Below, piece by piece: positions 125 to 5,572 of a stretch of 5,572 nt of DNA (position 1 is the stretch's first letter; each line of letters starts with the position of its first letter). The stretch lies in the IMG/VR virus record IMGVR_UViG_3300029855_000069. One strand, given 5' to 3'. This DNA is from a virus. The position numbers were made by a program, and so were the translations under genes. A model generated the notes under the pieces. That model saw only the letters and a program-made list of their open reading frames with translations, ran no database searches and had not been told where the DNA came from.

Positions 125-1825
125 ATGTCAAAAAGAGCTACTCAGCACAGCTTTGCTATAAGCCCGCAAAATCAGATTCCCCGTTCTTCTTTCAAGCGTT
201 CGCATACAGTAAAAACCACACTGGATGCAGGTCGACTTGTTCCGTTTTATATCGATGAAGTCTACCCCGGTGATACTTTTAATTGTAAGGCGACGCTTTT
301 TGGTCGTATGGCTACGCCGATTGTTCCGGCGATGGATAATGCTTATATGGATACTTTTTTCTTTTTCGTTCCGTACCGTCTTCTTTGGAAGCACTGGAAG
401 GAGTTTAATGGCGAAAATCCGCTTGCCGGTTATCAGAGTACAGAGTATGAAGTACCGCAGATGACGGCCACCAATGCGCAGGTTCAGACGCTTTGGGACT
501 ATTTCGGTTTTCCGACCGATGTAAAAAATAAGCTTTCGGTTTCTGCTTTCCCTTTTAGAGCGTATTGGAAGATTTATAATGATTGGTTCCGCGACGAAAA
601 TCTTCAAAACGCTGTGTCCATTCAGACCGGTGCGCCGCTTTCTTCGACTTCCTCCGAAGATGATGCATATGGTGGTGATGCTACGCAGGATGCTACGACT
701 GCACAGTGTTTCTATCGTGGTAAGCGACATGACTATTTCACAAGCGCTTTACCGTGGCCGCAGAAAGGCCCTGGTGTAGAATTGCCGCTTGGCCAAACTG
801 CTTCTGTTTCCGGCTCTTTACCTCTTAGTGCCTATGCTTATGTTCCTAAGCCGACGAGTGATTGGTCGGTAGATAGTCCGAGTTTGTATGTCCATTCAGA
901 ATCTAATGCTTTTCAAACTCCTGATTTTTCTCCTGTAAATTTGCAAGGCGCCATTAAAGTTCCTTCTAATAGTGGTCCAATTACTCAAGATGTTCCTTTG
1001 CAGCTTAATATAGCTGGTACTGCTGATGCAACTAAAGCTACGGTCGATTTGTCTAGTGCGACAGCGATTACTATTAACAGCTTGCGTTCTGCATTTGCGC
1101 TTCAACGTTTTTATGAAAAAGATGCTCGTGGTGGTACCCGATATACTGAAATTATTCGCTCACATTTCGGTATTATTTCGCCTGATGCTCGGTTGCAACG
1201 CAGTGAGTATCTCGGTGGCGATTCAACACCAATTATGTTCAATCCTGTTCAACAGACGTCTTCTACGGACACTACGTCCCCGCAGGGCAACTTGTCTGCG
1301 TATGCTTTAATGAGTACGCGTGTTCACGGCTTTAATAAGTCGTTTACCGAACATGGAATTGTGATCGGTTTATGTAATATTCGTACCGATTTAAGTTATC
1401 AGCAAGGCATTAATAAGACCTGGCTTAGACAAACCCGTGAAGAATTCTATTGGCCTACCTTCGCCCATCTTGGCGAACAAGCTGTTCTTAATAAAGAAAT
1501 TTACGCGCAGGGTACTGAGAGTGACGACCAAGTTTTTGGTTATCAAGAACGTTATGCTGAATGCCGTTACCATCCTTCTATCATTACCGGCAAGATGCGC
1601 TCGACATATGCACAGAGTACGGATGTATGGCATTTTGCGCAAAAATTCGATGCGCTTCCCGCTCTCAATGGTGAGTTCATCCAAGACCAGGCCAGCTATC
1701 AAGCTATTAAGCGTATTAGTGCGGTGCAGTCTGAACCCCAGTTTTATCTTGATGCGTATTTAGATTTAAAATGTGCTCGCCCGATGCCGGTTTACGGCGT
1801 CCCTGGCATGCTTGATCACTTCTAA
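125..1825 (+). CDS. VP1: Microviridae major capsid protein VP1 (phiX174 F-protein family), 566 aa
   Basis: The length is typical of gokushovirus VP1. The N-terminal PRSSFKRSH.VKTTLDAGRLVP and the LQRFYEKDARGGTRYTEIIRSHFG block are hallmark gokushovirus VP1 motifs. AGGAG Shine-Dalgarno lies 10 nt upstream of the ATG. Confidence 0.95.
   Translation: MSKRATQHSFAISPQNQIPRSSFKRSHTVKTTLDAGRLVPFYIDEVYPGDTFNCKATLFGRMATPIVPAMDNAYMDTFFFFVPYRLLWKHWKEFNGENPLAGYQSTEYEVPQMTATNAQVQTLWDYFGFPTDVKNKLSVSAFPFRAYWKIYNDWFRDENLQNAVSIQTGAPLSSTSSEDDAYGGDATQDATTAQCFYRGKRHDYFTSALPWPQKGPGVELPLGQTASVSGSLPLSAYAYVPKPTSDWSVDSPSLYVHSESNAFQTPDFSPVNLQGAIKVPSNSGPITQDVPLQLNIAGTADATKATVDLSSATAITINSLRSAFALQRFYEKDARGGTRYTEIIRSHFGIISPDARLQRSEYLGGDSTPIMFNPVQQTSSTDTTSPQGNLSAYALMSTRVHGFNKSFTEHGIVIGLCNIRTDLSYQQGINKTWLRQTREEFYWPTFAHLGEQAVLNKEIYAQGTESDDQVFGYQERYAECRYHPSIITGKMRSTYAQSTDVWHFAQKFDALPALNGEFIQDQASYQAIKRISAVQSEPQFYLDAYLDLKCARPMPVYGVPGMLDHF
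767..1069 (+). other. Low-complexity S/T/A/P-rich insertion region inside VP1; probable hypervariable surface ('mushroom'-type) loop
   Basis: VP1 residues ~215-315 (GQTASVSGSLPLSAYAYVPKPTSDWSVDSPS...TADATKATVDLSSATAI) lack the conserved-core character and lie between conserved blocks, as for the gokushovirus VP1 IN5 insertion. Confidence 0.45.
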
Positions 1826-1841
1826 AAGGAGTTGATGATAT

Positions 1842-2885
1842 ATGAGTTTCTTATCGTCGGTTGCCGGCGCTGCACTCGGCATTTGGTCGGGTAATAAATC
1901 GGCTAATGCCCAGGCTGCACTTTCGCGTGAGCAAATGCAATGGCAATCACAAGAAGCACAAAAAACTCGCGATTGGCAAGAAAAAATGTCTTCTACGGCT
2001 CATCAGCGTGAGATCGAAGATCTGCGTAAAGCTGGATTAAATCCCATGTTGTCGGCAATGGGCGGTAACGGTGCTAGTACGCCTGCTGGTGCGACTGCTA
2101 GCTACTCGTCTAATGCGTATACTGGTTATGGTTCTGATGTGTCTAACGGTATTAATGCGATGTCCGGTATGTATTCTGCGAAGACAAATCGAAAGATTCA
2201 ACAGCAGCAAGAAAAAAACTTGGAACAGCAAAATTTGAATCTTAGTGCAGATACATATAAAAAGACGCAGGAAGGTCGTGCTGCATCGACTGAAGCAGAT
2301 TATAAAAAGGCTATGTTAGAGACTCAATTAGTGCAGCTACTTGCTGATGCGAATAATTTACAAGCTAACGCTGATTTTACAAACGGCGTCGGCACTGCGA
2401 AAGCACAGTCTGAGATTGATAAATACAATGCTGAAACTCGGTATATTAGTGGCCCGCAGACGGATGTCGCGAATGCGACGACTGCGAATTTAGGAGCGCA
2501 GACAAACCGGATTAATGCTTTACTGCCACATGAAATCGCGAAAATTGATAGCGATATCGAAAAAAATGTACATGAAATTTTACGAATTGATTCTGAAACG
2601 AGTTTAAATCAGGTTAAAATGATGACTGAAAAGTATGTGCAAGGCGAACTTAGTGCTCGATCGCTTGTTGAGTATTTGCAAGCTAAAGGTCAGACTGAAG
2701 ATAATGCGCTAAAGTTTGTAAATCGTGTGCGCGCTCAGATAGATCTAAAACAGTATCAAATTCAGAATCGCTATTCTGGTGTTACTCCGCAAGGCCCTTA
2801 TGAACTTTTGGGCCGCATTCTTGGTAATGCGAAAGGTCTTGTTGATGCTTCCCCGTTTGGCCTTGTCACGCAGGTTTTTAAGTGA
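1842..2885 (+). CDS. VP2: Minor capsid / DNA pilot protein VP2 (H-protein analogue), 347 aa
   Basis: Hydrophobic N-terminus (FLSSVAGAALGIWSG), a Q/A/N-rich coiled-coil-like body and the conserved HQREIEDLRKAGLNPML segment typical of gokushovirus VP2. It lies immediately after VP1. AAGGAGTTGAT Shine-Dalgarno lies 10 nt before the ATG. Confidence 0.85.
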   Translation: MSFLSSVAGAALGIWSGNKSANAQAALSREQMQWQSQEAQKTRDWQEKMSSTAHQREIEDLRKAGLNPMLSAMGGNGASTPAGATASYSSNAYTGYGSDVSNGINAMSGMYSAKTNRKIQQQQEKNLEQQNLNLSADTYKKTQEGRAASTEADYKKAMLETQLVQLLADANNLQANADFTNGVGTAKAQSEIDKYNAETRYISGPQTDVANATTANLGAQTNRINALLPHEIAKIDSDIEKNVHEILRIDSETSLNQVKMMTEKYVQGELSARSLVEYLQAKGQTEDNALKFVNRVRAQIDLKQYQIQNRYSGVTPQGPYELLGRILGNAKGLVDASPFGLVTQVFK

Positions 2886-2981
2886 TCTCGGTTTTCCCTT
2901 GATTGCCCTGGTGAAATTGTTTTACTCTCGTATTAGTGGAACGGTGACGTACTGTGGCGTTTAGCCTATCATCCCTTTCTA

Positions 2982-3010
2982 TTGACATTCTGTTAGATAT
3001 ATGTTAGAAT
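2982..3010 (+). promoter_or_regulatory. Near-consensus sigma70-type promoter: TTGACA (2982..2987), 17-nt spacer, TAGAAT (3005..3010)
   Basis: Perfect -35 hexamer, a 5/6 match to the -10 hexamer and the optimal 17-nt spacer, about 20 nt upstream of the start of the small-gene/rep cluster (ATG 3030). Confidence 0.55.
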
Positions 3011-3029
3011 AATAACAGAGGTGATAGAT

Positions 3030-3194
3030 ATGAGAAAAACTCGTAGTATTTATTGTTCAGATGATGAGTACAAGCATCTGAAGATCGCATTACGTTTTAT
3101 GCGCGTTTTTGATGCGCTGTCGGTTGATGACTTGTCTGATGAGCAGCGGTCTAAGTATTTCCTGGAAATCATAAAAGGAGATGATGAAGAATGA
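3030..3194 (+). CDS. Hypothetical small acidic protein, 54 aa (MRKTRSIYCSDDEYKHLKIALRFMRVFDALSVDDLSDEQRSKYFLEIIKGDDEE)
   Basis: Translated by hand; not in the supplied ORF track. AGAGG Shine-Dalgarno lies 8 nt upstream and the gene is immediately downstream of the promoter. Its stop TGA overlaps the ATG of the next gene (ATGA). Confidence 0.5.
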   Translation: MRKTRSIYCSDDEYKHLKIALRFMRVFDALSVDDLSDEQRSKYFLEIIKGDDEE

Positions 3195-3286
3195 AAGTTG
3201 GTACTCCGGTCGCGTTGTTTTGTTGGCTTGTACTAGCCATTTTAGTTGTCTCCTTAGTGATTAGTATATTGGATGTTTTTTTATAA
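3191..3286 (+). CDS. 31-aa single-pass transmembrane peptide (MKVGTPVALFCWLVLAILVVSLVISILDVFL); candidate lysis/membrane-targeting peptide
   Basis: AAGGAG (3175..3180) lies exactly 10 nt before ATG 3191, the same spacing as five other genes in this genome. ATGA overlap with the upstream gene. Its stop TAA overlaps the Shine-Dalgarno box of the downstream gene. About 22 consecutive hydrophobic residues. Confidence 0.5.
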   Translation: MKVGTPVALFCWLVLAILVVSLVISILDVFL

Positions 3287-3300
3287 GGAGTTGATGTTGT

Positions 3301-3414
3301 ATGAAACGACAAAAAATGAGTAAAAAAAAGAGTAATAAAAACTTCCGTCGCGGAATGACAGTTAATCCGAAAAATAAGCGCCCCATCCCCATGCGCGGTG
3401 GTTTTAGAATGTAA
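3301..3414 (+). CDS. 37-aa highly basic peptide (MKRQKMSKKKSNKNFRRGMTVNPKNKRPIPMRGGFRM); DNA-binding/packaging protein analogous to phiX174 J / gokushovirus ORF8
   Basis: 14 of 37 residues are K/R. AAGGAGTTGAT Shine-Dalgarno with 10-nt spacing. The gene sits directly upstream of rep. Missed by the ORF track because of its size. Confidence 0.6.
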   Translation: MKRQKMSKKKSNKNFRRGMTVNPKNKRPIPMRGGFRM

Positions 3415-3448
3415 TGTTAGTTTTGATTTTCCCTGGAGTTGATTTGTC

Positions 3449-4366
3449 ATGCCATGCTATCATCCTATTCCAATGTGGTATAGTAAAGAGATAAATAAAG
3501 AAACTGGCAAACGCTCTTTGACGGCGAATTATGGTAATGCCTGGCGCCCACTTGGTCGGCTTCCGGAGACAATTTATGTTCCGTGTGGCCAGTGTGTCGG
3601 CTGTCGGCTTGAGTATAGCCGACAGTGGGCCATGCGTTGTGTACATGAGTTTGAAACAGCCGGTCGTGTTGGATCCTTCCTCACTCTTACATATAGTCCC
3701 GAACATTTGCCGGAAGATGGTAGAGTTCATAAAGACGTTTTTCAAAAGTTCATGAAACGTCTTCGAAAACGGTTTGGTAGCGGCCTTCGCTTCTTCGCTT
3801 GTGGTGAATACGGCCACAAGTTTAAAAGACCGCACTATCATGCAGTTATTTTTGGCTTGCGATTCCCGGATTTAATGATCCATACAGTTAAGCACGGTTT
3901 CCAGTATTATCGTAGTCCTACATTGGAGAAGTTGTGGCCCTACGGATTCAGCTTGATCGGCAGCGTTACGTTTGAGTCGTGCGCTTATGTTGCTCGTTAT
4001 GTGATGAAAAAGCAGAAAGGTGATAATGTTGACGAATCTTTGCAGCCGTTTGTCTTAATGTCACGCATGCCAGGCCTTGGCCATGATTGGTATGAAAAGT
4101 ATAAAAGCCAGGTTTATCCGAACGACTTCATTGTCGTCCGTGACGGTGTGACTTGTAAGCCCCCCGCATATTATGATTCCTTGTTAGAAAAGGACGATCC
4201 CGATTTGTATGAGAAAGTTAAAGAGGCCCGCCAAGACAAGTATCGTCGTGACGAGTCAATGACAACGGAAGAGTATGAAATTGCTCAGATCCAAGAGCGG
4301 TTAAAGGCTCGTAAGCTAACTAAACTTGTACGCCGGCTGCATGACGATGTAGATATGTACGAGTAA
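3449..4366 (+). CDS. VP4: Replication initiation protein VP4 (rolling-circle Rep, phiX174 gpA superfamily), 305 aa
   Basis: RCR motif I FLTLTY, motif II PHYHAVIFG (HUH) and motif III AYVARYVMKK (Y-x-x-x-Y catalytic tyrosines, cf. phiX gpA), plus the CGQCVGC cysteine cluster conserved in gokushovirus VP4. GGAGTTGAT Shine-Dalgarno lies 10 nt upstream. Confidence 0.93.
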   Translation: MPCYHPIPMWYSKEINKETGKRSLTANYGNAWRPLGRLPETIYVPCGQCVGCRLEYSRQWAMRCVHEFETAGRVGSFLTLTYSPEHLPEDGRVHKDVFQKFMKRLRKRFGSGLRFFACGEYGHKFKRPHYHAVIFGLRFPDLMIHTVKHGFQYYRSPTLEKLWPYGFSLIGSVTFESCAYVARYVMKKQKGDNVDESLQPFVLMSRMPGLGHDWYEKYKSQVYPNDFIVVRDGVTCKPPAYYDSLLEKDDPDLYEKVKEARQDKYRRDESMTTEEYEIAQIQERLKARKLTKLVRRLHDDVDMYE

Positions 4367-4380
4367 ATGTCATTTGACAT
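4365..4380. promoter_or_regulatory. Palindrome AATGTCA-TT-TGACATT overlapping the rep stop codon; possible operator or weak terminator
   Basis: Perfect 7-bp inverted repeat with a 2-nt spacer, followed by TTT. TTGACA (4374..4379) inside it is also a perfect -35 hexamer. Confidence 0.35.
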
Positions 4381-4384
4381 TTTG

Positions 4385-4393
4385 CCCCCCCCC
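4385..4393. repeat. C9 homopolymer tract
   Basis: Nine consecutive C residues, counted directly in the sequence. Confidence 0.9.
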
Positions 4394-4412
4394 GTATGGT
4401 ACTGTTGTACTA

Positions 4413-4486
4413 GCGAGAGGGCATTTTTTTTTAAATTCAAAAAGAGCGATCCTTTTCTGTTACTTCAAGCAACACTTCCCTCTCGC
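4413..4486. repeat. 9-bp inverted repeat gcgagaggg / ccctctcgc flanking a 56-nt AT-rich spacer that contains the T9 tract
   Basis: 4413..4421 is the reverse complement of 4478..4486. Together with the adjacent 10-bp palindrome acatatatgt (4504..4513) it marks a structured non-coding region. Confidence 0.6.
4424..4432. repeat. T9 homopolymer tract
   Basis: Nine consecutive T residues, counted directly in the sequence. Confidence 0.9.
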
Positions 4487-4736
4487 GAAAGGAGGTATTT
4501 TGCACATATATGTACATCGGTCGTATGAATCTTTTGACCAGGTAGATTTGTGGCAAATTTATCGTAAAGTGCGTAATACTGATATTACGGATGTTATTTG
4601 TTTTTCGCCTTGGAAGACAAAGTATTTCCACGGAAGGAGTGAACTTAGAAATCACTATTCTCATGCGTATCTTACACGTTATTGTCGCCGCTGTTTTTGA
4701 TTTTATTCTTAATATTTTAAAAGGAGTTGTTACGAA

Positions 4737-5015
4737 ATGCTTAAGGTTTATTCAATCTTGGATGATAAGGCACAGTGCTTTAATACGCCGTACTTTGCCC
4801 AGAATGACCTGGTTGCTAGCCGTTCTTTTAGTGATTTGTGTAATGATAGTCGGAGTCTTGTTAGTCAGCACCTCGGCGATTTCCACTTGTATTGTCTAGG
4901 TGAGTTTGATGATGAAAAAGGTTTTCTCAAGCCTTATGATGTGCCTGCTTTTATTTGCCATGCAATGCAATGCGCTAATGTTGAAAGGAGCGAAGCGAAT
5001 GGAGATACGCTCTAG
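4737..5015 (+). CDS. Hypothetical protein, 92 aa; possibly the small ORF5/VP5-type protein of gokushoviruses (function unknown)
   Basis: AAGGAGTTGTT Shine-Dalgarno exactly 10 nt before the ATG. Its 3' end overlaps the VP3 start by 17 nt in another frame. No recognisable motif. Confidence 0.5.
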   Translation: MLKVYSILDDKAQCFNTPYFAQNDLVASRSFSDLCNDSRSLVSQHLGDFHLYCLGEFDDEKGFLKPYDVPAFICHAMQCANVERSEANGDTL

Positions 5016-5436
5016 ATATAATGCTGGTACTCGTGAGGGTTGGAAATCGTCTGTCCCTTCCATGACGCAGCAGCAGTTTAAGGACGAAGCAGATATCAAT
5101 TATATCGTTTCAATGTACGATTCTTCCGGCGTTATGCCGACTTTCCATGGTGACGGTCAGCCGGCGCAGCCTGTTTTCGGTGATTTTGCATCGCTGCCGG
5201 ATAATGCACAGGAGATGTACAATCGTATGATAGAAGCTAAAAGTAACTTTGACAATTTGCCCTTGGACGTTCGTAAGCGTTTTAATTATGACCCTGCTGC
5301 TTTCTTAGAGTTTGTCGATAATCCGGAAAATTTAGATGAGCTCGTGGCCATGGGTCTTGCTACTAAGACTGTTATTAAGTCTGATAATCATACGGAAAAT
5401 ACGGATAATAATGCAGGCGATAAAGCCAATGGATAA
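4999..5436 (+). CDS. VP3: Internal scaffolding protein VP3, 145 aa from ATG 4999 (the ORF-track start at 4900 is probably too far upstream)
   Basis: Contains the conserved gokushovirus VP3 motifs SMTQQQFKDEADINYIV and RKRFNYDPAAFLEFVDNPENL. AAGGAG (4985..4990) lies 8 nt before ATG 4999; the upstream ATG at 4900 has no Shine-Dalgarno box and lies inside the 92-aa gene. Confidence 0.85.
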   Translation: MEIRSRYNAGTREGWKSSVPSMTQQQFKDEADINYIVSMYDSSGVMPTFHGDGQPAQPVFGDFASLPDNAQEMYNRMIEAKSNFDNLPLDVRKRFNYDPAAFLEFVDNPENLDELVAMGLATKTVIKSDNHTENTDNNAGDKANG

Positions 5437-5473: not shown

Positions 5474-5572
5474 CTGAAAAACCGCATGGTTGTCACTTTC
5501 GTTTTCAGGTCGTACCAGTTCTACTTGATGTAACTGGTACGACTGACACCAATGTTGAATTGGTGTACTAAA
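5474..5572. repeat. Second copy of the terminal redundancy (identical to 1..99). It includes a second copy of the ori hairpin at 5509..5543.
   Basis: Exact 99-nt identity with the window start. Confidence 0.9.

Follow-up and report, generated by a model that had tools for sequence, protein, structure and literature searches.

A 37-codon VP8/ORF8 gene for a putative DNA-binding peptide preceding the replication gene in an uncultured gut gokushovirus

VP8 is a conserved gene of the gokushoviruses (PMC7062461; PMC9239249), and its product has been located within the virion by cryo-EM. In the Spiroplasma phage SpV4, VP8 residues 9-38 could be built on the inside of the capsid. The C-terminal Phe sits in a hydrophobic part of VP1, buried close to the 2-fold axis, two stretches (33-38 and 14-20) contact VP1 through hydrogen bonds and salt bridges, and order of the N-terminal 13 residues is seen only in DNA-filled particles (PMC11281519). 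For the Enterogokushovirus phiEC6098, the virion of which is deposited as 8DES, the same source describes a VP8 with 10 ordered C-terminal residues and a C-terminus buried in VP1 (PMC11281519). The J proteins of phiX174, G4 and alpha3 (PF04726; phrog_2354, 'DNA condensation') are, like VP8, short (24-38 aa) and very basic, and the GenBank note on J states that it 'binds to ssDNA ... and is packaged with the DNA into procapsids'.

The window analyzed here (the whole stretch of 5572 nt) is a complete circular gokushovirus genome of 5473 bp that was assembled with overlap, as an exact direct repeat of 99 bp is present at its termini (1-99 = 5474-5572). PHROG and Pfam searches of the window placed every recognised gene on the + strand, and the genes of microviruses all face one direction (PMC9239249). 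The set of VP1, VP2, VP3, VP4, and VP5 of a gokushovirus-type genome was found in full (Table 1). The closest GenBank genomes are those of Gokushovirinae/Microviridae from pig faeces, with ~85% nucleotide identity. The VP1 protein is homologous to both gokushovirus capsids that have been solved with VP8 bound, those of phiEC6098 (8DES_A, 9.6e-170) and SpV4 (9CGM_A, 9.2e-101).

Table 1. Coordinates of genes, sites and peptide regions in the window, with the evidence for each.
Feature	Position	Strand	Evidence
VP1 major capsid protein	125-1825	+	PF02305, 3.7e-167
VP2 pilot protein	1842-2885	+	
Candidate promoter TTGACA-17 nt-TAGAAT, TG upstream	2982-3010	+	11/12 consensus positions
orf54, 54-aa acidic ORF	3030-3194	+	open in relatives
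orf31, 31-aa hydrophobic ORF	3191-3286	+	GGAG-N10-ATG, conservation
Shine-Dalgarno box AAGGAG of VP8	3285-3290	+	read from sequence
VP8/ORF8, 37-aa basic putative DNA-binding (DNA-packaging) peptide	3301-3414 (stop codon included)	+	phrog_10695, 8DES_E, pN/pS, orthologues
VP8 aa 1-30, predicted ssDNA-binding region	3301-3390	+	composition, conserved pattern, SpV4 analogy
VP8 aa 31-37, C-terminal anchor MRGGFRM, putative VP1 docking	3391-3411	+	invariance; SpV4 and phiEC6098 analogy
VP4 replication initiation protein	3449-4366	+	phrog_942 6.5e-116, PF23343
VP5	4737-5015	+	PF20577
VP3 internal scaffold	4999-5436	+	PF09675 Chlamy_scaf

The ORF studied here runs from ATG to TAA and encodes the 37-aa peptide MKRQKMSKKKSNKNFRRGMTVNPKNKRPIPMRGGFRM. 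The peptide contains 8 K and 6 R (14/37, 37.8%) and no D or E, has a predicted pI of ~12, and carries 13 of its 14 basic residues within aa 1-30. A first-pass annotation of the window had described a K/R-rich peptide of 37 aa with about 38% basic residues upstream of the replication gene; the translation proved exact, and VP4 lies downstream. The GGAG of the Shine-Dalgarno box is located 10 nt from the ATG. Such a GGAG-N10-ATG spacing is found at six places in the window, all of them on the + strand and at the start of an ORF (VP1, VP2, the 31-aa ORF, VP8, VP4, and VP5), compared to 0.48 occurrences expected by chance, and none of 200 shuffles reached six. As all six are at gene starts, the initiation context of VP8 is that of the bona fide genes of the phage. 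The canonical Shine-Dalgarno box and spacing noted at first pass thus agree with the context of VP1, VP2, VP4, and VP5. An alternative start at Met6 (3316) was rejected, as it lacks a Shine-Dalgarno box and the MKRxxMS N-terminus is kept in the orthologues.

A short ORF on its own is unremarkable, because the window contains 62 ORFs of at least 25 aa; it is conservation, together with the family matches, that raises VP8 above chance. Selection was assessed in eight close relatives from the pig gut, in all of which the ORF is intact. Among these the VP8 frame has a pN/pS of 0.043, and 24 of the 30 variable sites fall on codon position 3 (binomial P = 2e-7), as expected under purifying selection, whereas the other two + frames are full of stops. 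We therefore give next to no credence to the idea that the ORF arose by chance in an A-rich intergenic spacer, or that an antisense ORF is the real gene. In its favor, ORFs of this size are numerous in the window, and both antisense frames are open over the VP8 stretch in 8/8 relatives, one of them with a pN/pS of 0.15. Yet the sense frame has the lowest value (0.15 and 2.0 for the open antisense frames), and the antisense frame with 0.15 presumably has its wobble positions in common with the sense frame, so that its low value is an expected artefact. Moreover, the family and PDB matches belong to the sense peptide, and an antisense gene would run against the single direction of the recognised genes. 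The minus-strand ORFs at 3169-3450 (93 aa) and 3261-3392 (43 aa) were rejected by the frame-wise pN/pS, and a chance ORF by the pN/pS and codon position 3 values of the sense frame.

Conservation extends well beyond the pig-gut relatives. A tblastn search with the VP8 peptide against 50,697 phage records gave 34 matches, all in Microviridae (34/34) and most under no annotated feature. Ten of these loci were extended to full ORFs, and each encodes a basic peptide of 37-41 aa that ends in MRGG[FI]R[ILM]-stop (10/10), mostly located between VP2 and VP4. A motif scan of IMG/VR yielded more than 599 matches, and tblastn confirmed 143 of them. For the best 80 of these 143 loci, the median peptide length is 38 aa with a median of 38% K/R, the stop directly follows MRGG[FI]R[ILM] in 80/80, and, of the 75 loci with an identified VP4, 74 have its frame opening between -180 and +282 nt downstream. 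The ubiquity of the motif in the IMG/VR set is circular, as the C-terminal motif served as the search pattern; this does not apply to the position of the stop, the length and composition of the peptide, the MKRxxMS pattern at its N-terminus or the gene order. Peptides identical to the one described here are already present in two IMG/VR contigs (L022 and L023). The first-pass annotation had named a failure of conservation across related genomes as what would speak against the gene; the peptide is conserved in 34 GenBank microviruses and at least 80 IMG/VR loci.

A different possibility is that the ORF acts as an uORF or leader peptide that only tunes the expression of VP4, with a peptide devoid of any structural role. 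The ORF ends 34 nt before the VP4 start (stop at 3414, start at 3449), and this adjacency is conserved. However, it is the amino-acid sequence that is maintained, beyond mere translation (pN/pS = 0.04), and the C-terminal motif is invariant across phages with nucleotide sequences that have diverged beyond recognition. In addition, VP4 has a GGAG-N10-ATG site of its own, the VP8 gene of the KR704915/L062 lineage is located after VP4 rather than before it, and homologs of VP8 have been physically seen in capsids. A leader peptide without a structural role is therefore highly improbable, and a gene for a VP8 structural peptide is the reading that we follow below.

Members of the VP8 family were recognised by a length of ~36-44 aa, at least 30% Lys + Arg, essentially no acidic residues and an RGG-x-R-hydrophobic-stop end. 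With 37 aa, 14 K/R, 0 D/E, and the end MRGGFRM-TAA, the window peptide has all of these features, and the RGG-x-R-hydrophobic end is also found in SpV4 and 8DES_E. Its C-terminal residue is Met, versus Phe, Leu or Ile in the solved or isolated phages. The gene lies just upstream of VP4, as in the Chlamydia phage Chp2 and in phiMH2K. The peptide matches phrog_10695 (E = 5.4e-8; residues 1-37 on positions 2-39 of the 39-position profile), a family that also takes Chp2 ORF8 (5.8e-19), the phiMH2K 'putative DNA binding protein; similar to phiX174 J' (8e-8) and the 'DNA binding protein' of bajarodmic virus 248 (2.3e-9). In an alignment of 12 orthologue sequences that includes Chp2 and phiMH2K (A1), a check that had been proposed at first pass for known gokushovirus ORF8/VP8 peptides, identities of 46% and 30% were obtained for the window peptide with the phiMH2K protein and Chp2 ORF8, respectively. 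Seven residues are invariant across the 12 sequences (R3, N25, M31, R32, G33, G34, and R36), and the N-terminal and middle part follows the conserved pattern MKRxxMSxKxSxxxF...KN.

Searched against PDB sequences, the single peptide found 8DES chain E only marginally (E = 0.025), whereas the profile built from A1 found it at E = 2.6e-10; this chain is the 39-aa 'Putative DNA binding protein', VP8 of phiEC6098. The shared PHROG, the MRGG-x-R-hydrophobic-stop end, the gene position and the profile match to 8DES_E bear out the earlier comparison with chlamydiaphage ORF8. Taken together, the substitution pattern and the profile matches show, at the level of sequence, that the ORF is a genuine gene, that purifying selection acts on it and that its product is a homolog of the VP8 peptides found in solved virions; nothing in our data contradicts its identity as a VP8 gene.

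The first-pass annotation had also likened the peptide to phiX174 protein J. In size and composition the two mirror each other (14/37 basic residues here versus 12/38 in J, acidic residues absent), and the likeness stands as a functional analogy; it fails as family membership at the sequence level. At E<=1, the Pfam family Microvir_J (PF04726) gave no match for the window peptide, whereas phiX174 J, as a positive control, matched at 1.7e-16; nor did Microvir_J match Chp2 ORF8, the phiMH2K protein or SpV4 VP8. Similarly, the window peptide did not match the J PHROGs phrog_2354 and phrog_3780, which phiX174 J matches at 2e-28. An hhalign comparison of the VP8 profile (A1) with a J profile (A2) returned a probability of 0.9% (E = 0.064) over 7 columns, an irrelevant segment that does not include the C-terminal anchors. 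The J signature KGARLWYVGG-x-Q-[FY], with its ARLWYVGG core, is absent from the window peptide. The genes also differ in their place: J directly precedes the capsid gene F in phiX174 (J at 848-964, F at 1001), and G4 and alpha3 show the same order, whereas VP8 is found between VP2 and VP4, ahead of the replication gene.

Direct membership of the phiX174 J family, or true homology with it, consequently appears unlikely. In its favor, the peptide is in the same size class as J, is as extremely basic, has no acidic residues, and shares the GG-x-x-hydrophobic-stop end (MRGGFRM versus YVGGQQF). J is held by its C-terminus in a pocket of the capsid; this end and that of VP8 use one and the same buried capsid site, which is mostly hydrophobic, and the microviruses solved so far show structural conservation of the last four residues (PMC11281519). 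The N-termini are directed differently, in J toward the 2-fold axis and in SpV4 VP8 toward the 5-fold axis (PMC11281519). As the GG-x-x-aromatic/hydrophobic end is all that the sequences have in common, we regard J as an analogue of VP8. A deep homology is no more than a possibility, given the shared size, charge, C-terminus and capsid site. If VP8 and J were true homologs, which we consider doubtful, the GG-x-x-hydrophobic anchor would be ancestral to all microviruses for the tethering of ssDNA, and the gene would have moved and diverged past recognition. A lineage such as this one, with ~1 kb of additional genome and a lysine-rich VP8 that ends in Met, would then be an intermediate point for the relation of charge load to genome size.

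An isolated basic peptide of 37 aa is expected to be disordered. For VP8 of this phage we propose a mechanism modeled on its relatives, in which the peptide would be translated from its own ribosome-binding site and its ~30 lysine/arginine-rich N-terminal residues would bind the phosphate backbone of the ssDNA genome. Binding would be concurrent with the rolling-circle synthesis of the genome by VP4 (with VP5) and its feeding into the procapsid. The C-terminal MRGGFRM would enter a mostly hydrophobic pocket at the inner surface of VP1, and this docking would hold the DNA on the shell in icosahedral order, with VP8 retained in the virion. If 60 copies per virion are present, as in the solved relatives, VP8 would contribute 60 x 14 = 840 positive charges, or ~15% of the 5473 phosphates; the same calculation for phiX174 J gives ~13%. 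Virion presence, copy number, DNA binding and docking site are what we infer here from the relatives, and by the same analogy the DNA-packaging role suggested at first pass would match the published role of VP8 and J (PMC11281519). On balance, we consider it very likely that this is the VP8 gene of an uncultured gut gokushovirus, with its own ribosome-binding site, a basic part that binds ssDNA and a C-terminus that docks on VP1, and that its product is kept in the virion.

Between VP2 and VP8 the window contains two further small ORFs. The acidic orf54 (MRKTRSIYCSDDEYKHLKIALRFMRVFD...) is open in 14/14 close relatives found, and its frame stays open even at 31-43% identity; searches of PHROGs and Pfam gave no family match. 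It is probably a real accessory gene of the pig-gut gokushovirus clade. The peptide of orf31 (MKVGTPVALFCWLVLAILVVSLVISILDVFL; 31 aa) is almost entirely hydrophobic and starts with GGAG-N10-ATG. It is 83-100% conserved in seven relatives, and the other eight relatives examined have a different hydrophobic ORF of 33-36 aa (MIKFILFCWSLRFALSIFLFVLILIVSTIDALF) at the same spot between the orf54 homolog and VP8. No PHROG or Pfam match was obtained for orf31, and a literature search on a gokushovirus lysis peptide found nothing directly relevant; we describe orf31 as a positionally conserved single-helix membrane peptide. Upstream of both ORFs, a near-consensus sigma-70-type promoter with an extended -10 TG is the best site in the region 2800-4800, identified by consensus match only, and promoter-like sites are overall no more numerous there than expected from shuffled sequence. 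Judged from its sequence, this candidate promoter could drive the block of orf54, orf31, VP8, and VP4.

Two other regions of the genome deserve mention. An ORF of 108 aa between VP4 and VP5 (orf108, 4374-4700, + strand) was rejected as a gene: in relatives it is interrupted by stops, with the nucleotide sequence still similar, which makes 4367-4736 a conserved non-coding region. A run of eight C residues (C8) is present in this region and, at 4479-4495, a stem-loop with a T run. Upstream of VP1, a hairpin-rich stretch at 29-79 (copy at 5502-5552; gtcgtaccagtt...aactggtacgac) is ~94% identical to segments of MG945491 and PQ006928, microviruses from dog and rodent faeces that have no other megablast-detectable sequence in common with the window. 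This stretch may have a conserved regulatory or origin-like function, or it may mark a hotspot of recombination.

VP8 is a known kind of gene that is usually missed by annotators. The usual ORF length cut-off is 60 aa, and VP8 is unannotated in all seven of the nearest GenBank relatives (7/7); its absence from the ORF track of the window is plausible on both grounds. Database labels of the family also lag behind the literature: phrog_10695 is listed under 'unknown function' in PHROGs, despite VP8 homologs seen inside virions by cryo-EM, and GenBank (NC_002194) continues to list Chp2 ORF8 as a 'nonstructural protein'. Although VP8 belongs to the core structural genes of the gokushoviruses, its 37 codons fall below the thresholds of gene callers; with its recognition the gene map of this phage is complete. 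Elsewhere it can be searched for as a basic ORF of 36-44 aa with an RGG-x-R-hydrophobic-stop end adjoining the replication gene. As the seven nearest GenBank genomes lack the annotation, the practical value of our analysis lies in annotation; the family, the virion location and the likely role of VP8 are already published, and no new biology is opened. Our data support both the sequence reading and the interpretation of the first-pass annotation, and the biology is ordinary.

Among the described systems, VP8 of SpV4 (PDB 9CGM, 38 aa), recovered here from the SpV4 genome with genetic code 4, is a small basic peptide with the end PRGGRRF-stop. It matches neither the A1 profile nor phrog_10695, and it is detectably similar to the window peptide in the last six residues alone, with RGG-x-R as the common end.

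Chp2 ORF8 (NP_054652.1, 44 aa) and the protein of the Bdellovibrio phage phiMH2K (NP_073546.1, 38 aa) share with the window peptide phrog_10695, the MRGG-x-R-hydrophobic-stop end and a gene position immediately before the replication gene. Of greater length than the window peptide, Chp2 ORF8 is rich in arginine, whereas the window peptide is lysine-rich, and the gene order of Chp2 differs in that VP3 comes after VP2. We know of no experimental demonstration of DNA binding for either of these two proteins.

VP8 of phiEC6098 can be aligned with the window peptide over its full length (residues 2-37 to 4-39 of 8DES chain E), with the common pattern MS-K-S-x-x-F-R...N...MRGG-x-R-hydrophobic-stop. 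The two phages have the same circular gene order, VP1-VP2-VP8-VP4-VP5-VP3, and strongly homologous capsid proteins (E = 1e-169). Within the C-terminal motif, the window peptide has Met for Leu at the C-terminus and Phe for Ile. It contains 14 basic residues, versus the 16 reported for phiEC6098 VP8 (PMC11281519). The window genome is ~1 kb larger (5473 versus about 4500 nt), and its gap between VP2 and VP8 holds the two extra small conserved ORFs, in contrast to the variable non-coding region of the enterogokushoviruses (PMC7062461).
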